Origin: a virus
IMG/VR virus record: IMGVR_UViG_3300045988_014784
Span: 1 to 5,530 of that record
DNA length: 5,530 nucleotides
Direction: 5' to 3' (one strand)
Shown here: piece after piece, positions 1-5,530 of the stretch
Numbering within the stretch: the stretch's first letter is position 1
Layout of the letters: every line of letters starts with the position of its first letter
Translations under genes and position numbers: made by a program
The notes under the pieces: model-generated
The model's input: only the letters and a program-made list of their open reading frames with translations
Told to the model about the DNA's origin: nothing
The model's database searches: none

Positions 1-55
1 ACCTCCTTTGTTTGTTTGTCAATTACCTTCCTCTGCCGCTTCCGCTGCCTGAGAA
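1..55. repeat. Terminal direct repeat, copy 1 (identical to 5476..5530); circular-contig assembly overlap
   Basis: acctcctttgtttgtttgtcaattaccttcctctgccgcttccgctgcctgagaa occurs at both ends of the window, verified base by base. Confidence 0.95.
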
Positions 56-994
56 TTTGCCTTTTCCGCCCTGGTTCCATTTGTTCTTCAGGTTGGCTAT
101 TGCTTTGTCGGCTTCGATGCCTATTCTCGGCGCTGTTGCTGTTTCTTCCGAGGATTTGTTGTTATAGGTGTTGTTTGTGGTTTGAGCGATGCTGCCAACT
201 GTTTTTGCGCTGCTTGACCCGATATTCTGCATGATACTCTGCATGTATCCGGCTTCTTCCCAGTTTTTCGTTTCTTTTGCCGTGTTGATTGCCTGCATGG
301 CGTTCTGTAGGAACTGTGCTGTGTTGTTCCCGTAATCATACATCGCTTGCATGGTGGCTGTGTGTGCTGCCGGTATGGCTGATGCCTGAGCATGGCTAAA
401 GGTTGCGTTACCGACTGCTGCCTGTCCTCCGCTGCCGCTGCTTGCTCCAAACCCGTTGTAAGCTGCCAGTGCAGGGTTCAGACCTGCTTTTTTCAGGTCT
501 TCTACTCCTCGTTGGTAGGCTGTGCTGGACATCATCTGTTGCCAGTCTCTGTTTTTCTGGCTTTCTTCTCGGTTAAAGGCCATTGCCGAGGCCTGGCTTT
601 GTGCTGTCAGCTCGTTCGCCCTGGCGTTTGACCATAGGTTCATCAGGTTGCCTAGCGCCCATTGTCCGCTCTGGAGGTTGTTTGCCGTGGTTGCCTGTCC
701 GGCGTTGAAGTTTGCCGCTGTCTGGCTGTTGTTTCCTGTGATGCCTGTCATGGCCTTTCCCAGGATATCTGCGATTCCAGATGTGTTACCCTGTGTTACC
801 TGTGCGCCTTGGGATCCTGTTGCCTGGCTCATGTTTCCGCTCATGCTGGTATTCCCAACTTGTTGGTTCATGGTGTTCTGATTCATTGCGCTGCTGTTCG
901 AGCCCTGGCTGTTGATAAAGCTGCTTGCAATGTTTCCCAGACTTCCTATCACGCTTGGCAGCAGTTGCAATGCGATTGCTCCCCATCCTCCCAT
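23..994 (-). CDS. VP2: VP2-type minor capsid / DNA pilot protein (323 aa)
   Basis: ORF lies directly downstream of the major capsid gene, with an 11-nt gap containing GGAGG 6 nt before the ATG. Hydrophobic N-terminus (MGGWGAIALQLLPSVIGSLGNIA) followed by a long N/Q/S/G/A/T-rich low-complexity body and a Gly-rich basic tail (GGKGKFSGSGSGRGR). Size, position and composition fit gokushovirus VP2. Stop TAA at 25..23. Confidence 0.85.
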   Translation of the reverse strand: MGGWGAIALQLLPSVIGSLGNIASSFINSQGSNSSAMNQNTMNQQVGNTSMSGNMSQATGSQGAQVTQGNTSGIADILGKAMTGITGNNSQTAANFNAGQATTANNLQSGQWALGNLMNLWSNARANELTAQSQASAMAFNREESQKNRDWQQMMSSTAYQRGVEDLKKAGLNPALAAYNGFGASSGSGGQAAVGNATFSHAQASAIPAAHTATMQAMYDYGNNTAQFLQNAMQAINTAKETKNWEEAGYMQSIMQNIGSSSAKTVGSIAQTTNNTYNNKSSEETATAPRIGIEADKAIANLKNKWNQGGKGKFSGSGSGRGR

Positions 995-1005
995 TGTGCA
1001 CCTCC

Positions 1006-2652
1006 TTAGATCGTATTAAGGCCCGGCACGCTGTAGATCGGCATGGGCCGTGTCCAGGTTTGATCAAAGTAAAAGTTGCAGATGAACTGATAGCTGTGAT
1101 TGGTGTCTTCAACTGCCAATGTTCTGGCGATGTTTTCTGTCCCTTCTTTGATCCAGTCGCTCGACAATCTCGGAAGTTCTGTGTAGTGATCTGCGTAGTG
1201 CCAGGCATCCAGGCTTTGTGCGTATGTGCTGCGCATTTCGGACGTTATCATGTTTGTGCGGTACCTGTAATCTGCCCAGGCTTCCTGGTAACCGAATACC
1301 TCTTCGTCCTTTTCGGTTCCCTGTGCATAGATTTCTTGGTTTAATACTGGCTGTTCTCCCAGGTTTGCAAGCATCGGGTCATAGTAGCTGAATCGTGTGC
1401 TTCTCGTCCACATCCGGCTTAATCCCTGCTGATAGCTGTGTTCCACTCGCACGCAGCACAGGCCCAGGACATAACCGTGCTCGGTTGCGCTGTAGGTGCA
1501 CATGTGTTTGGACATGGTTGTCATACTGTATGCTGCTGTGTTGCCCTGCGGGCTGATCTGGCTGCTGCTGCTCGTTTGAATGACCTGGTTGATGTTGATC
1601 GGCATTCTGTATCCGCCGATGTATTCGCTTCGGTCAAGTCGTGCATCTGGTGAGGTTACACCCCAGGCTCCTTTCAGGATCTCTTTGTACCTGGTTCCGG
1701 TTCTCGCATCGCGTTCCAGGATATGCTGCACTGCGATGGAGTTTCGGAGTTCGTTGATGCTGATTCCTGATACTGCGGTAAGGTCTGCTTGCAGGTTGCC
1801 GGTTGATGTTTTAAGCGCATTGCCGCTGGGGTCGCTGTATCCTGTGATTTTCGTTGCAATTGCGTTTGGATCATTTAAATCGTTTGAGATTGTTGATGTT
1901 GCTAGAGAGTCTGTTGTGTCCAGATAAATTACTTTATCTGTTTTTTCTCCGTTATAGGTTAGCCATACTGGTGCTAGCCCTGCTAGGCCGATTTCTACGC
2001 CCTGGCCTTTCTGTGGCTGCGGTAGACTGCTGGTGAAATAGTCTTTGTGTTTGCAGACTTTGAGAAGTTTTCCGCCTACTGCTGCTGAGTTTATTCCTTC
2101 TCCTATGTCATCATCTTTTATGTGGTTGATCGTTTTATCTTCTGTTATTACCCCTTTTGGCTGTTGCAAGTTTTCGTCTCGGAACCACTCGTTCCATATC
2201 TTCGCATATGCATTAAAAGGCATTCTGTTTATTTCCAGGCCCGGCACTTCTGTTGGGATTCCCATGTGATCCGCGATGGTTCCCACTTTCCATCCTTCTC
2301 CGCTTGTATCTTTTACTTTGGGTGTCGTGTATTCTACTTTTTCTGCCCAGTAGCTTGAATCGTTCTGGCCCATCATGTTTACGAAGTGATCCCAGAGCAG
2401 CCGACATGGCACGAAGAAGAAGAAAATATCCATGTTACAGTTATCCATAACAGGATAGAGTGGAGTGGCCATGCGTACCAGTCCGTTCACATCGATCTTG
2501 AAAGTATCGCCAGGTAATACCTCGTCCACGTAGATCGGTACCAGTTCGCCCTCGTTGATTGTGGTCAGCAGTGAAAAATCTCTTTTGAAGCGGCTTCGCC
2601 GGATTTCTGCGTGCGGTACTTGGCTGTAGTGCTGTTCAGAGTTTCTGTTCAT
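1006..2652 (-). CDS. VP1: Major capsid protein VP1 (Microviridae F-protein family, 548 aa)
   Basis: N-terminal signature RSRFKRDFSLLTTINEGELVPIYVDEVLPGDTF. Further signatures KHKDYFTSSLPQPQKG, INELRNSIAVQHILERDARTGTRYKEILKGAWGV and DARLDRSEYIGG are all typical of gokushovirus VP1. GGAGG sits 8 nt upstream of the ATG, inside the VP3 C-terminal codons. Confidence 0.97.
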   Translation of the reverse strand: MNRNSEQHYSQVPHAEIRRSRFKRDFSLLTTINEGELVPIYVDEVLPGDTFKIDVNGLVRMATPLYPVMDNCNMDIFFFFVPCRLLWDHFVNMMGQNDSSYWAEKVEYTTPKVKDTSGEGWKVGTIADHMGIPTEVPGLEINRMPFNAYAKIWNEWFRDENLQQPKGVITEDKTINHIKDDDIGEGINSAAVGGKLLKVCKHKDYFTSSLPQPQKGQGVEIGLAGLAPVWLTYNGEKTDKVIYLDTTDSLATSTISNDLNDPNAIATKITGYSDPSGNALKTSTGNLQADLTAVSGISINELRNSIAVQHILERDARTGTRYKEILKGAWGVTSPDARLDRSEYIGGYRMPININQVIQTSSSSQISPQGNTAAYSMTTMSKHMCTYSATEHGYVLGLCCVRVEHSYQQGLSRMWTRSTRFSYYDPMLANLGEQPVLNQEIYAQGTEKDEEVFGYQEAWADYRYRTNMITSEMRSTYAQSLDAWHYADHYTELPRLSSDWIKEGTENIARTLAVEDTNHSYQFICNFYFDQTWTRPMPIYSVPGLNTI

Positions 2653-2655
2653 GCT

Positions 2656-3138
2656 TTATTCCTCCTTTTTTGTTGATTCTGCTGTGTCTGGTTGTGCTGC
2701 AGCAGCGTTCTGATTCGGCATAATGCCCATATTTTTAAGCCATTCCGGATCTCCTGCGGTTGCTGCCCAGTTATCAAAGTTGTTGTTGAACCTGTTTCGG
2801 ATTTCTAGCGGCAGTGCCTCGAACTTTTCTTTCTGTTCGTTCATCATGTTCCGCCATTCGATGTAGTTTGCAGGCAGTTTGCTGGTGTCGATGTACCAGC
2901 CAGGATTCGCCATGACGGTTGTGTCACCTGCTGCATATCTTGCCAGGATGCTCATGGGGTCAACTTCGTCACGGTAGCTCTGGATTTTTTCATACGTGTT
3001 GACCTCTCCGACCTGCTCAAGGTAGGGATTTCCGTTTTCATCGTACCGCTCTTTGTATTGCGGTTCCATAATATTTCCCGGCTCGTTTGGCTTCCTTTTC
3101 GGTTTTTCATCTTCATAAGGCGTAAAGATTTTAACCAT
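2656..3138 (-). CDS. VP3: Internal scaffolding protein VP3 (160 aa)
   Basis: Size, position directly upstream of VP1, and the C-terminal pattern FEALPLEIRNRFNNNFDNWAATAGDPEWLKNMGI match the conserved gokushovirus VP3 motif (F..LP..iR..F.N.p..f..f..d......lG). GGAGG 9 nt upstream. The ATG overlaps the upstream gene by 8 nt (ATGGTTAA). Confidence 0.85.
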   Translation of the reverse strand: MVKIFTPYEDEKPKRKPNEPGNIMEPQYKERYDENGNPYLEQVGEVNTYEKIQSYRDEVDPMSILARYAAGDTTVMANPGWYIDTSKLPANYIEWRNMMNEQKEKFEALPLEIRNRFNNNFDNWAATAGDPEWLKNMGIMPNQNAAAAQPDTAESTKKEE

Positions 3139-3388
3139 CCTTTTTTTCCTCCATGGTTTTCTTGACCTGCTCGATGTTCCATTCCAGTTCCGGCATGATC
3201 GGCGTGATCAGGCCGGTTTCGGTGTCGTACTGCCCCAGATGATAGACCCGTTTATCCTCGCAGTCGCTTTTTTCCATCTCCTGGGTCATCCATTTGAAGG
3301 TGCGTTCCTTGACGATTGGATTGATTACCATGATGTTTCCGAAGGTTCCTGCCAGTTCATCCTTGATTGCATAAAGTTCAAAAGTCAT
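3131..3388 (-). CDS. VP5: VP5-like small nonstructural protein (85 aa; presumed analogue of phiX174 protein C in ssDNA synthesis/packaging)
   Basis: MTFELYAIKDELAGTFGNIMV...RTF...YHLGQYDTETGLI fits the gokushovirus VP5 pattern as I recall it (N-terminal Y.v.D......F; central R.F; LG.fD..TG.i). GGAGG 9 nt upstream. 11-nt overlap with the upstream ORF and 8-nt overlap with VP3. Confidence 0.65.
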   Translation of the reverse strand: MTFELYAIKDELAGTFGNIMVINPIVKERTFKWMTQEMEKSDCEDKRVYHLGQYDTETGLITPIMPELEWNIEQVKKTMEEKKDG

Positions 3389-3578
3389 TGTTGCTATCCT
3401 CCATAATTTCGTTGATGATATCGTTTTTGTGATATCTCATCCCATATTCGATTGCTTTTCGTGTCGCTGCCGGCACGCTGCATCCCAGATCTTCTGCCAG
3501 ATCATCAATTTCGGCTGCTGTGTCGTACCTCAGTCTGACTGTCAGTGTGCAGCATGCCATGTTCTTGATTTTCTTCAC
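3378..3578 (-). CDS. Ribbon-helix-helix (CopG/Arc/MetJ-like) putative DNA-binding protein, 66 aa, GTG start
   Basis: CTLTVRLRYD (beta strand), TAAEIDDLAEDLG (helix A), the G-x-S turn, then SVPAATRKAIEYGMRY (helix B) is a textbook RHH pattern. The GTG start at 3578 has GGGGAGGAA 7 nt upstream and forms a GTGA overlap with the stop of the preceding 39-aa gene. An alternative ATG at 3560 lacks an SD. Confidence 0.7.
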   Translation of the reverse strand: MKKIKNMACCTLTVRLRYDTAAEIDDLAEDLGCSVPAATRKAIEYGMRYHKNDIINEIMEDSNNDF

Positions 3579-3694
3579 AGTCGGATTCCTCCCCGGCTCG
3601 GTTTCGGGTTGACGTTGATTTTTTTGGTCTTTTTTGCTGTGTTGGTGAACACCTTCTTGTCGGTTTTCGGTTTAACAGTGCTGCGGTATGCCAT
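3575..3694 (-). CDS. Small basic DNA-binding protein (39 aa; ORF8 / J-like), not in the supplied ORF track
   Basis: My translation is MAYRSTVKPKTDKKVFTNTAKKTKKINVNPKPSRGGIRL. It is highly basic and has the C-terminal RGGIR(L/F) motif seen in gokushovirus ORF8-type proteins. AAGGAGGA sits 6 nt upstream of the ATG. The start overlaps the upstream stop (TAATG) and the stop overlaps the downstream GTG (GTGA). Confidence 0.75.
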   Translation of the reverse strand: MAYRSTVKPKTDKKVFTNTAKKTKKINVNPKPSRGGIRL

Positions 3695-3801
3695 TACTCT
3701 TCCTCCTTATCGAGTTCCAGTGTGTGGTAGATCTTATCCAGCATGTGCAGGATTTTTTTGAGATGTCTGAAAATCGCGTTGATGTCTTGCAAAGTTACCA
3801 A
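3694..3801 (-). CDS. Hypothetical 35-aa peptide, TTG start (predicted amphipathic helix, acidic tail)
   Basis: AAGGAGG (3817..3811) lies 9 nt upstream of TTG at 3801. There is no in-frame ATG upstream (in-frame TAG further up). Translation MVTLQDINAIFRHLKKILHMLDKIYHTLELDKEEE. The TAA stop shares its last A with the ATG of the next gene, which is a translational-coupling geometry. No homology recognised. Confidence 0.35.
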   Translation of the reverse strand: MVTLQDINAIFRHLKKILHMLDKIYHTLELDKEEE

Positions 3802-3840
3802 TGTTTTTAACCTCCTTTCGGTATTTTTGTTTACAGTTCC

Positions 3841-3868
3841 ATTCTATCAAAAAAAAAAAAAAAAACAA
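3841..3868 (-). promoter_or_regulatory. Candidate late promoter: TTGTTT (-35-like) - N16 - TGATAGAAT (extended -10), overlapping the terminator T-tract
   Basis: The minus strand reads CCACCTTG-T17(last T shared)-GATAGAATGG. TGnTAGAAT matches the extended -10 consensus at TG plus 5/6 positions, and the T-tract could act as an UP-like element. It lies about 25 nt upstream of the first late-gene SD. Only sequence logic supports this call. Confidence 0.35.
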
Positions 3869-3889
3869 GGTGGAATTTTGTCCACCTTG
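3849..3889 (-). terminator. Rho-independent terminator downstream of Rep: 9-bp perfect stem, 6-nt loop, 17-T tail
   Basis: Minus strand: CAAGGTGGA-CAAAAT-TCCACCTTG followed immediately by 17 T. On the plus strand these are caaggtgga 3866..3874, the loop 3875..3880, tccaccttg 3881..3889 and A17 at 3849..3865. Confidence 0.8.
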
Positions 3890-3907
3890 CTGATTTTATG
3901 GTTGTTG

Positions 3908-3949
3908 GCTGTCCGGTCGGCCGTGGTCGGCCGACGATTAGAGGACAGC
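3908..3949 (-). repeat. Compound GC-rich stem-loop in the Rep-distal noncoding region (outer 7-bp stem plus inner 8-bp stem with tetraloop)
   Basis: Outer stem pairs gctgtcc 3908..3914 with ggacagc 3943..3949. Inner stem pairs gtcggccg 3916..3923 with cggccgac 3928..3935, with loop tggt. The element contains a GTCGGCCG direct repeat and the 10-bp perfect palindrome gtcggccgac (3926..3935). No ORF is possible here. Confidence 0.85.
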
Positions 3950-4012
3950 GCAGCGTATAGGTTAGATTCTGGTTGGTGCTCTTATTGGCCGTTCTCGTTG
4001 TTTGTAGATGGC

Positions 4013-5116
4013 TCAGACTTCTGTGCGTATGAGTTTGCTCATTCGTTCTTGCATTTTTTTGTCTTTCAGGTTATAATAGTCCTGCATGGTCAGGCCGGTT
4101 TGCTTGAGCTGAGCAAAGAGAGCGTCGTTTGCGATTCTTCGGCGTTCTCGTTTGATTGCTTTCAGTTCTTCAGATTCGGCTTTTTCTGTTATATCTTCGA
4201 TTTTTTGAACTTCTTCATCTGTCAGTGGCTTTGCTCCATGGTCGATGTCGAACAGCTTGTCAAAATATCTTGGCGGTTTACAGATTTTTCCGTTCTTCAG
4301 CTGTATCTGATCTTTTTCGTAGATTTCTGCTGCATGGTCATAGTAGTATTGTGCACCGATTGCCGGTTTTTTGCTCATAAGGCATTGTTCCGGCATAATG
4401 CCTAATTCTTCATAAAATTTTTTGCCGTCCTTTCCGTAAATCTTTTTTGTTGTGTACCTTGCTGTGTATGCCATAGATCGCCATTCTGCTGGTGCTAGGA
4501 TGACGTGTCCCATGCCCCAGATTTTTTCTAGCCATTCGCAGTTATAGTATGTGAATCCTCTTTCTTTCTTGTAAACTTTTAAATCTTCCTGTTTTATTGG
4601 TAGATCGTAGACAATTGCGTGATAGTGTGGTCTGTGTGTCTGGCTGCCGTATTCGCCAGCTTGGAAATACATCAGCTTGCCTTTTCCTTTTTCGTGGTAT
4701 TCTATGTGCCTTCTGAGACGTTTCCAGAATTTTTGCATGTCCTCATAGCACAGACTGAGGTTTTCTGTTATTACTTCGCCTGTCAGTGTGTCCCATGTCG
4801 CTTTATATGGGACATTTTCGTTATTATAGGTGATTGTTAGGAACCATGCGTTTTTATGGTATGGCAGCTCCATTTCCATCCGGTTCGCCCAGGACGCAGC
4901 GTTTGCCATTTTGCATCCAGGACAGTGCCCGCATGGTAGCAGCTGAGCATTCTGTTCTTTGAGTAGTTTTTTAATTCGCTGTTCGTTCCACTTCTGCTGT
5001 TTTTGATCTGCGTCAAACTCTAGCTTTTCGCCTGTTTTTGACAAGTATGCCTTCAGGCTGACCACTCTTTCTTGTCTGTTGATGACGGTTCTAACCAATG
5101 GCCTCGTACATGGCAT
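4013..5116 (-). CDS. VP4: Replication initiation protein VP4 (HUH rolling-circle endonuclease, phiX174 gene A family), 367 aa from the preferred start
   Basis: RCR motif 1 FLTITY. Motif 2 RPHYHAIVY (HUH). Motif 3 AYTARYTTKK, two Tyr spaced as in phiX174 A (Y-x-x-x-Y-x-x-K). Cys cluster PCGHCPGC and the MSKKPAIG motif are also present. The preferred start is ATG at 5116 (MPCTRPLV..., the common M-x-C-x-x-P Rep N-terminus), with GGAAGGAGG 12 nt upstream. The track ORF runs 24 codons further up to 5188, through a 16-bp hairpin and without an SD. Confidence 0.93.
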   Translation of the reverse strand: MPCTRPLVRTVINRQERVVSLKAYLSKTGEKLEFDADQKQQKWNEQRIKKLLKEQNAQLLPCGHCPGCKMANAASWANRMEMELPYHKNAWFLTITYNNENVPYKATWDTLTGEVITENLSLCYEDMQKFWKRLRRHIEYHEKGKGKLMYFQAGEYGSQTHRPHYHAIVYDLPIKQEDLKVYKKERGFTYYNCEWLEKIWGMGHVILAPAEWRSMAYTARYTTKKIYGKDGKKFYEELGIMPEQCLMSKKPAIGAQYYYDHAAEIYEKDQIQLKNGKICKPPRYFDKLFDIDHGAKPLTDEEVQKIEDITEKAESEELKAIKRERRRIANDALFAQLKQTGLTMQDYYNLKDKKMQERMSKLIRTEV

Positions 5117-5140
5117 AGATGTTTCATGCCTCCTTCCCTG

Positions 5141-5181
5141 AATGGGCCCCAATAACCTTCTTGATGTTATTGGGGCCCATT
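5141..5181. repeat. Perfect 16-bp inverted repeat with 9-nt spacer, immediately upstream of the Rep SD
   Basis: aatgggccccaataac (5141..5156), cttcttgat (5157..5165), gttattggggcccatt (5166..5181). The arms are exact reverse complements. There is no T-run after it on the minus strand, so it is not a canonical terminator. Confidence 0.95.
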
Positions 5182-5256
5182 GACACAATTTTTAGATGCT
5201 GCTTGCTTCTCGTTATGGATAAATGTTGCTTCCCTGAGTGAGGCGGTAGCCGTAAC

Positions 5257-5427
5257 TCATGCTGTTTTTTGGTATCCCAGTGCTTCTGCGTATTCGTCAA
5301 TAGCATCTCTTATGATATCACTGTCGATATATTTATCATACAGTTTGCATGTTTTGATGAACTCTAGCTCTTCGATCTGTTTTTGTGTCAGGTTGATGTT
5401 CATTCTTTTTGCCATTTGACTTCTCAT
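5257..5427 (-). CDS. Small RHH-like putative transcriptional regulator (56 aa), not in the supplied ORF track
   Basis: ATG at 5427 with AGGAGGG (5440..5434) 6 nt upstream; TGA at 5259..5257. My translation is MRSQMAKRMNINLTQKQIEELEFIKTCKLYDKYIDSDIIRDAIDEYAEALGYQKTA. The pattern is a basic N-terminus, a short beta strand (RMNINL) and two helices (TQKQIEELEFIK; SDIIRDAIDEYAEAL), which is RHH-like. It is the first gene after the consensus promoter. Confidence 0.65.
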   Translation of the reverse strand: MRSQMAKRMNINLTQKQIEELEFIKTCKLYDKYIDSDIIRDAIDEYAEALGYQKTA

Positions 5428-5468
5428 GTTACGCCCTCCTACTTTAAGTGTACGATTTTTACACCCAT

Positions 5469-5497
5469 ATTATACACCTCCTTTGTTTGTTTGTCAA
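5469..5497 (-). promoter_or_regulatory. Consensus sigma70-type promoter (TTGACA - 17 nt - TATAAT) for the RHH-Rep early unit
   Basis: Minus strand: TAA(VP2 stop)-TTGACA(5497..5492)-AACAAACAAAGGAGGTG(17 nt)-TATAAT(5474..5469). Both hexamers match the consensus 6/6 at optimal spacing. The location is the 70-nt gap between the VP2 stop and the RHH-like ORF. Confidence 0.75.
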
Positions 5498-5530
5498 TTA
5501 CCTTCCTCTGCCGCTTCCGCTGCCTGAGAA
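5476..5530. repeat. Terminal direct repeat, copy 2 (identical to 1..55); circular-contig assembly overlap
   Basis: Same 55-mer as 1..55. It contains the VP2 stop codon (5498..5500 = 23..25) and the -35 box of the early promoter. Confidence 0.95.

Follow-up and report, generated by a model that had tools for sequence, protein, structure and literature searches.

The region in front of the replication initiator gene Rep (VP4) in the IMG/VR virus record IMGVR_UViG_3300045988_014784 raises two questions: whether a small gene placed directly upstream of Rep regulates it, and what a long hairpin lying between the two genes does. We analysed positions 1 to 5,530 of this record (hereafter the window), which correspond to a circular genome unit of 5,475 nucleotides (nt) with a 55-nt terminal redundancy (positions 1–55 repeated as 5476–5530). 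The window virus is a gut microvirus of the gokushovirus type, and every recognisable gene of the window lies on the minus strand. We computed sequence features, conservation, purifying selection, a ribbon-helix-helix (RHH)-like fold, stem covariation, and the homology and orientation of the hairpin. With moderate confidence, we read the region as a CopG-type autorepressed operon of an RHH gene and Rep, in which the Rep origin is embedded. The elements under study are the following, where ORF56 is an open reading frame (ORF) of 56 codons and SD denotes a Shine-Dalgarno sequence.

5469..5497, minus strand: early promoter, TTGACA (5497..5492), 17-nt spacer, TATAAT (5474..5469)
5257..5440, minus strand: SD AGGAGGG (5440..5434) and ORF56, ATG at 5427, stop TGA 5259..5257, 56 amino acids
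5141..5181, plus strand: origin-type hairpin, arms 5141–5156 and 5166–5181, loop 5157–5165 reading CTTCTTGAT (ATCAAGAAG on the coding strand)
5181..5188, plus strand: TGACACAA box directly 3′ of the hairpin, reading TTGTGTCA on the coding strand, invariant in the clade
4013..5135, minus strand: SD AAGGAGG (5135..5129), spacer ATGAAACATCT and the Rep/VP4 gene, ATG at 5116, stop 4015..4013

ORF56 is a conserved gene with a predicted CopG-like fold

The original prediction had proposed a 56-residue reading frame with a strong SD and an RHH-like pattern in front of Rep, and comparison with relatives bears this out. The AGGAGGG sequence ends six nt ahead of the ATG, and ORF56 is a genuine gene: it evolves under purifying selection, with a ratio of nonsynonymous to synonymous substitution rates (dN/dS) of 0.068 at a mean dS of 0.50 across eight close relatives. 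Searches of 5.8 billion proteins returned 23 ORF56 clusters at 73–95% identity, those with full-length contigs residing on contigs of 5.1–5.9 kb, and a profile search of 1.84 billion representatives returned 30 families at 50% identity, with the family consensus M(K/R)SQ.AKR.NINLT..E...L...SDIIRDAI..Y. In every inspected contig with visible flanking genes, the homologue lies between VP2 and Rep, including remote members of ~36–45% identity, and both the SD and the RHH frame are present at all 24 distinct loci of our clade alignment (Rep 57–98% identical to that of the window). A profile search of the surveyed gokushovirus loci detected the RHH gene only in the window clade (VP1 at least 65% identical) and not in the other ~70 loci surveyed; ORF56 is therefore a clade-specific accessory gene.

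The ORF56 product very probably has a CopG-like RHH fold. Its predicted topology corresponds to this fold, namely a β-strand with alternating polar residues followed by two helices, the second of which carries a serine or threonine N-cap. Aligned with pMV158 CopG by hhalign, the family profile matched over 40 columns spanning the whole β-α-α unit (81.6% probability, E = 1.1e-5), with KRMNINLT placed on KRLTITLS and S36 of ORF56 on the CopG serine; the DNA-reading residues predicted from this alignment, R8, N10 and N12, are retained by at least 90% of the family. An AlphaFold2 monomer model built from a deep alignment (predicted local distance difference test, pLDDT, 84.5) has an extended segment at residues ~8–14 and helices at 15–27 and 35–49, the N-terminal strand carrying no β assignment, as expected for a monomer. 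The model built from a shallow alignment reached a pLDDT of 70.5 and gave no Foldseek matches. Foldseek searches of PDB and BFVD yielded no significant match (E ~0.1–1), and the top of the list consists almost entirely of RHH proteins at template modelling (TM) scores of 0.6–0.7, among them YiiF, AtaR, MazE, NikR, AmrZ, ParD, PrpA, Arc and CopG-named phage proteins. Against Pfam RHH_1 (PF01402), ORF56 stays below the cut-off (13.2 versus 20.5 bits, E = 0.091, helix 2 only), and 15 of 35 family members match this model, also below threshold (best E = 9e-4); sub-threshold NCBIfam matches likewise belong to RHH families, namely aCcr1, NikR and ‘ORF56 plasmid copy control’.

A second small RHH-like protein, ORF66 (MKKIKNMACCTLTVRLRYDTAAEIDDLAEDLGCSVPAATRKAIEYG...; 3378–3578, minus strand), is encoded in the late region between the gene for a J/ORF8-like protein and VP5. 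It aligns with CopG (hhalign 77%, E = 2e-5), matches Pfam RHH_1 at E = 0.057, and is conserved in close relatives only (25 clusters). A paralogous relationship of ORF66 to ORF56 was considered and rejected (hhalign probability 0.2%).

The hairpin in front of Rep is a widespread module

Past ORF56, after 75 nt, begins an inverted repeat with 16-nt arms that are 100% complementary and enclose a 9-nt loop; it lies five nt ahead of the Rep SD and 25 nt ahead of the Rep ATG. The position and the perfect arms agree with the 16-bp palindrome abutting the Rep SD that had been proposed earlier, but the repeat is interrupted by the loop rather than continuous. Folded as single-stranded DNA (ssDNA), the hairpin has a free energy of about -18 kcal/mol and a z-score of about -6. 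In a comparison of 12 distinct hairpins, pairing is kept in 97.9% of cells and 12 of the 16 pairs show compensatory double changes, a result equalled by none of 500 shuffles. Arm variants among relatives include AATGGGCCCCAATAAC, GTGGGGGGAATAGAC and CCTAGCCCCTATAAC, besides others, with no change across the clade in either the loop ATCAAGA(A/G)G or the TTGTGTCA flank.

We surveyed hairpins at ~110 distinct gokushovirus loci, collected by a pattern scan and a VP1-based survey, and found that at most of them the strongest hairpin has this same design. Read on one strand, the module consists of a stem, a loop rich in pyrimidines that terminates in CTTGAT (or ACTTGAT, CTTGT), the second half of the stem, and (G)TGACAC(C/A)A. 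Two orientation classes were distinguished by regular expression, with a few manual corrections (VP1 hidden Markov model orientation, hairpin listings). Class F, to which Chlamydia phage Chp2 and many others belong, has CTTGAT on the gene strand; class R, comprising the window clade and other large gut clades, carries hairpin and box alike on the strand that does not encode the genes. In both classes, most surveyed gokushoviruses have the TGACAC-type box 3′ of the hairpin when read on the CTTGAT strand. The position of the module varies: in RHH-bearing loci of the window clade the hairpin ends 21–27 nt before the Rep ATG, and elsewhere it lies just past the Rep stop (another class R clade) or mostly 27–460 nt before Rep (class F).

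In Chp2 (AJ270057), the homologous module at 2904–2941 is the strongest hairpin of the genome, has the loop TCTACTTGAT and is located upstream of ORF8/Rep. It differs from the window module in that its box reads GTGATAGCA instead of the TGACAC type and that CTTGAT lies on the gene strand, opposite to the window clade; Chp2 also has no annotated RHH gene. The SpV4 hairpin loop contains the CTTGT variant.

These comparisons bear on the proposal, made in the original prediction, that the palindrome is an operator at which ORF56, bound just upstream of the Rep SD, represses Rep. The proximity of the repeat to both the RHH gene and the Rep SD would suit such a role, and RHH proteins often bind symmetric sites. 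The pattern of variation runs the other way, in that the arms change compensatorily while the β-strand KR(M/V/I)NINLT stays fixed, and the invariant parts are the loop and the flank, not the arms. Additionally, the same hairpin, loop and flank occur in many gokushoviruses that have no RHH gene, at other positions, away from Rep and in the opposite orientation to transcription. Because the arms covary while R8, N10 and N12 are fixed, and because the hairpin exists without the RHH gene, it is improbable that ORF56 uses this repeat as its operator.

A further alternative places the function of the hairpin in the ORF56–Rep transcript, where it could attenuate transcription, affect processing or stability of the RNA, or hold back translation of Rep. 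The hairpin does lie in the transcribed spacer just before the Rep SD, and the 16-bp stem forms in the RNA fold. However, the stem is followed by the tail TTCAGGGAAGG, which contains no U-tract, the terminator scan does not call it, and homologous elements elsewhere are antisense to transcription, located after Rep or before VP1. The variable position and orientation of the module exclude a conserved function at the RNA level or one tied to the neighbourhood of the Rep promoter, and we consider an RNA element highly improbable as the explanation of the hairpin; a secondary RNA effect in the window clade is possible.

The hairpin loop carries the phiX174 nick core

The window Rep is assigned to Pfam PF23343 (REP_ORF2-G2P, E = 2.4e-14) and phrog_942 (E = 5e-96), and contains the HUH motif HYHAIV and the tyrosine motif YTARYTTK; its start, M-P-C-T-R-P, is kept throughout the clade alignment as M-x-C-T-R-P. 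In phiX174, protein A cuts the origin CAACTTG^ATATTAATAAC between G4305 and A4306, with rep_origin annotated at 4306. The loop CTTCTTGAT of the window hairpin holds the same CTTG^AT core, which is conserved in most surveyed gokushoviruses. Beyond belonging to the same family, the two viruses share a Rep of the two-tyrosine HUH type, the CTTGAT/ACTTGAT core, found in the window in the loop (plus strand CTTCTTG AT), and a core-bearing strand that is strongly T-rich at 4-fold degenerate sites. They differ in the setting of the core: the phiX174 origin forms part of gene A and is found on the coding strand, without a long hairpin, whereas in the window the core sits in the loop of a 16-bp stem, is followed by a TGACAC box, and occupies the non-coding strand. 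In the window the minus strand encodes the genes and the plus strand carries CTTGAT, an opposition found likewise at 50+ class R loci.

We therefore regard the hairpin as a strand-specific DNA element, most likely the viral-strand origin of Rep, with a predicted nick at G5163^A5164, because its loop holds the phiX174 nick core, because the module recurs in Chp2 and most gokushoviruses, and because its strand is T-rich and carries an excess of C>T and G>T changes (see below).

Another type of ssDNA signal, either a complementary-strand origin such as G4 oriC or the single-strand origins (sso) of plasmids, or a packaging signal, has to be weighed against this reading. A conserved loop on a covarying stem is typical of sso elements as well. 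Also, in reekeekee- and roodoodooviruses, Olo Ndela et al. 2022 (PMC9865509) describe conserved hairpins in the Cap–Rep interval, all with the same loop and with compensatory changes in the stem, which they read as possible negative-strand initiation sites while leaving their function open; these hairpins belong to other clades and have other sequences, and the available portion of that paper draws no link to the phiX nick motif, to orientation or to composition. The loop core of the window module, by contrast, equals the mapped phiX174 A-protein cleavage sequence (CTTGAT/ACTTGAT), and the chance of finding that hexamer in a 9-nt loop on either strand is ~0.002. We consider such a signal unlikely, and if it were the correct explanation, the CTTGAT strand would still be the encapsidated one.

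Two further checks concerned the sequence of the element. A XerCD/dif-like site was rejected on geometry, the 16-bp arms and 9-nt loop comparing with the 11-6-11 arrangement of dif sites. A DNA pattern scan for TTGTGTCA-N14-18-ATCAAGAAG returned ~20 non-microvirus matches, all without a hairpin, which were discarded as chance.

Strand composition follows the putative origin motif

If the hairpin is the nick site of Rep, the strand that carries CTTGAT would be the one rolled off and packaged. We compared the two orientation classes using TA4, the skew (T-A)/(T+A) computed from the coding strand of VP1 at its 4-fold sites.

phiX174 gene F: +0.85
gut class F clade (n=13): +0.83
mixed class F clade (n=39): +0.34 (range -0.61 to +0.81)
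class R clade 1 (n=34): -0.52
class R clade 2 (n=23): -0.47
window VP1: -0.70

For all window genes together TA4 is -0.66, and the plus strand of the window contains 36.7% T and 16.5% A. Substitutions at 4-fold sites, polarised by singletons and counted on the coding strand, were also asymmetric in both classes.

class F, transitions: C>T 0.377 versus G>A 0.080 per site, p = 5e-9
class F, transversions: G>T 0.115 versus C>A 0.011, p = 1e-4
class R, transitions: C>T 0.073 versus G>A 0.168 per site, p = 0.0016
class R, transversions: C>A 0.073 versus G>T 0.027, p = 0.034

The signature of ssDNA damage thus follows the CTTGAT strand, whichever strand bears the genes. Transcription-linked deamination acts on the coding strand and so leaves the class R pattern unexplained. 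Since three independent lines, namely the strand of the nick motif, the T/A skew and the substitution spectra, agree with one another, our judgement tilts towards the hairpin being the Rep nick site and the CTTGAT strand being rolled off and encapsidated, which would make the window clade and at least one or two other large gut clades of class R negative-sense microviruses. For the window, we infer that Rep, as an HUH enzyme, would nick CTTG^AT in the hairpin loop at G5163^A5164 on the plus strand, like phiX174 protein A, and that the plus strand would be the packaged one. The ~50-nt origin module would have been inverted with respect to the genes, producing the switch to antisense packaging.

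Two caveats apply to antisense packaging. On the neighbour-joining tree, whose deep branches are very short, just two changes of orientation are required, which implies few independent events, and several environmental class F genomes (L047, L136, L144) have zero or negative skew.

A consensus promoter and a candidate operator ahead of ORF56

The early promoter starts directly after the VP2 stop codon TAA (5500..5498). As the original prediction had stated, its TTGACA-17-TATAAT arrangement is the sole perfect match in the window (12 of 12 positions). None of 200 dinucleotide shuffles gives one. Among the 24 clade loci, 21 match the regular expression TTGACA-16/18-TAnnnT, mostly as TATA(A/T)T, and the remaining three are one mismatch off; the promoter is also present beside remote RHH family members. 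From the promoter (5497..5469) the gene order runs through ORF56 to Rep, with the RHH gene co-oriented with Rep and directly upstream of it, and this layout is kept in all relatives with visible flanking genes. Promoter, ORF56, hairpin and Rep signals all recur in relatives and are thus no chance features of this one sequence. The terminator scan found no terminator-like site between ORF56 and Rep (5257..5116). Four further features of this transcription unit are listed here.

5448..5477, minus strand: block over -10/+1, with GTGTA at 5477..5473, GTGTA at 5464..5460 and inverted TACAC at 5452..5448
5439..5468, minus strand: 9-codon mini-ORF MGVKIVHLK, ATG at 5468, TAG at 5441..5439, inside the conserved block
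5215..5228, minus strand: conserved block CAACATTTATCCAT (consensus AACAWWWATCCAT) just past the ORF56 stop, present at all 24 aligned loci
3848..3891, minus strand: intrinsic terminator downstream of Rep, an inverted repeat with its stem-loop at 3891..3864 and a T-run, the top minus-strand terminator-like site

Three of the eight occurrences of GTGTA/TACAC in the genome are packed into the 30 nt of the -10/+1 block, which is near-invariant across the 24 clade loci (GGTGTATAWTATGRGTGTAnnAAYC..ACAC) and in which RNA folding predicts a 5′ stem-loop of the early mRNA. Judged from its sequence, the GTGTA/GTGTA/TACAC block would be a better candidate for the RHH operator than the hairpin, and/or may form this 5′ stem-loop.

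The mini-ORF begins right behind the -10 element, has an SD-like AAGGAGGTG within the promoter spacer, and its frame stays open in relatives. As a leader peptide it was rejected, since codon 4 varies at positions 1–2 and not at position 3, and the ATG precedes the expected transcription start; it is probably constrained at the DNA or RNA level rather than coding.

The block past the ORF56 stop is conserved while the spacer around it varies. It is complementary to 2437–2451 in VP1 (15 nt, 93%), probably by chance.

In the autorepressed operon that we favour, one σ70/σA consensus promoter would transcribe ORF56 and then Rep, ending at the intrinsic terminator, as an early unit. By analogy with CopG-type systems, ORF56 would bind, most likely as a dimer of dimers, to GTGTA-N8-GTGTA-N7-TACAC over -10/+1; we infer that binding at this putative operator would repress its own promoter and thereby cap Rep synthesis. 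Translation of Rep would be further limited by the SD–AUG spacing, which at 12 nt is unusually long, and by a small hairpin in which the RNA fold pairs the Rep AUG. Members of the clade share the spacer between SD and ATG, RTGAAACATC(Y) (5117–5128, minus strand), and a 24-codon ORF starts ahead of Rep, out of frame, with an ATG at 5127; together with the long SD–ATG distance, these features may reflect translational control of Rep.

Several points weigh against the operon and its embedded origin. The RHH assignment leans on sub-threshold or non-significant scores (13.2 versus 20.5 bits in Pfam, E ~0.1–1 in Foldseek), ORF56 was modelled as a monomer only, and its linker between helix 1 and helix 2, at 7–9 residues, is longer than that of CopG. 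The conserved -10/+1 block could be merely a promoter with a 5′ mRNA stem-loop, and the first GTGTA of the candidate operator is lost in one relative (L148). The SSB-tip-like tails of some ORF56 homologues (described below) hint at a replication role that is not purely transcriptional. Our literature search found no experimental mapping of any gokushovirus origin, and a nick site in the loop would oblige the clade to encapsidate the antisense strand, for which Microviridae offer no precedent.

Plasmid operons and relaxosomes as comparisons

The closest known operons are copG-repB of plasmid pMV158 (CopG/RepA, PDB 1b01/2cpg) and ORF56-ORF904 of the Sulfolobus plasmid pRN1 (PDB 2k9i). In both, the RHH protein autorepresses the operon and thereby sets copy number. 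The window resembles them in having a small RHH gene immediately upstream of the initiator and one strong promoter, and its family gives weak profile matches to CopG and to pRN1 ORF56. It differs from copG-repB in that the replicon is an encapsidated ssDNA phage rather than a plasmid, in the longer inter-helix linker, and in that the similarity remains below family thresholds. With respect to pMV158 there are two further differences: no antisense-RNA partner is evident in the window, and the putative window origin lies inside the operon, between its two genes, whereas the double-strand origin of pMV158 is upstream of the operon genes.

Conjugative relaxosomes containing TraY, NikA or TrwA offer a second comparison, as there too an RHH protein is encoded beside an HUH nuclease and a hairpin-associated nick site. 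Rather than a repressor, or besides being one, ORF56 could accordingly be an accessory factor that aids melting or nicking of the origin by the HUH enzyme. The gene is positioned between promoter and origin-type hairpin, next to the HUH Rep, the Foldseek matches in BFVD include a protein named NikA, and the promoter block and the TTGTGTCA flank each contain a GTGT core. Several family members also end in DDLPF, EDLPF or DDDDLPF, resembling the C-terminal tip (DDDIPF/DDDLPF) with which the bacterial single-stranded DNA-binding protein (SSB) recruits replication and repair proteins; members with such tails would, on this account, also recruit the host partners of SSB. The window protein, however, has no tail, and no conserved repeat fit for an RHH tetramer was seen beside the hairpin. 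In contrast to the relaxosomes, we identified no RHH binding site next to the window hairpin, and most gokushoviruses with the same module have no RHH gene; the hairpin and TGACAC box presumably work in many such viruses, which implies that Rep is generally independent of RHH. We thus rate an accessory role as doubtful.

The tails consist of a C-terminal extension with an acidic run and (D/E)LPF, in the forms DDLPF, EDLPF, EDELPF, DDDDLPF and DDDDDLPF, and DDDDLPY in L044. The carriers are P0024, P0030, P0033, P0034, P0036, P0040 and P0051, as well as L058, L044 and L148:1582-1875.

Genome context and host

The remaining annotated features of the window include the two genes below and, also on the minus strand, the VP3 scaffold gene, VP5 and the gene for the J/ORF8-like protein, which has 39 residues.

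994..23, minus strand: VP2 pilot protein
2652..1006, minus strand: VP1 capsid protein (Pfam Phage_F, E = 3e-162)

In the GenBank phage collection we found just three partial matches, at 72–79% identity in the VP1/VP3 region, from records of pig faeces. The intergenic region after Rep (3802–4012) contains an A16/T16 run with a bidirectional terminator-like hairpin (3848–3907), and beside it, at ~3910–3949, lies a GC-rich repeat or palindrome, CTGTCCGGTCGGCCGTGGTCGGCCGACGATTAGAGGACAG.

Most window genes are preceded by a strong AGGAGG-type SD, and the promoter has the canonical form TTGACA/TATAAT. These signals point to a host with σA- and SD-dependent expression, perhaps among the Firmicutes, rather than Bacteroidota. 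An RHH-pattern scan of 185k representative genomes gave no direct evidence of a host; the sole match to the RHH alignment, the N-terminus of RsmG in a gidA-rsmG-parB locus, was rejected as chance. The carrier or persistent lifestyle that had been suggested for this virus found no supporting evidence, there being no integrase and no bacterial relatives in this one narrow genome scan.

One surveyed contig (L131, IMGVR_UViG_3300045988_001800) contains at ~5038–5167 a 61-bp perfect inverted repeat of CTGTCTCTTATACACATCT..., which we take to be the Illumina Nextera adapter; the repeat is an artefact of assembly in this publicly deposited viral sequence.

Implications for microvirus biology

The usual description of microviruses, to our knowledge, gives them no dedicated regulators. 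Our searches of the literature found no RHH protein or any other regulator in microviruses, and nothing relevant on a gokushovirus origin hairpin or on negative-sense microviruses. Kirchberger et al. 2022 make no mention of a hairpin, a regulator or skew, and a large survey (PMC9239249) lists as microvirus accessory genes only methyltransferases, peptidases and unassigned small proteins.

A CopG-type RHH–Rep operon would mean that plasmid-style feedback on the initiator operates in at least one abundant gut clade, and the hairpin with the phiX174 nick core and TGACAC box provides a concrete candidate for the gokushovirus origin. Microviridae are, in textbooks, positive-sense viruses. Antisense packaging, if true, would revise this description, and would affect strand-aware virome methods, codon and mutation models of ssDNA phages, and the conventions by which their genomes are oriented.

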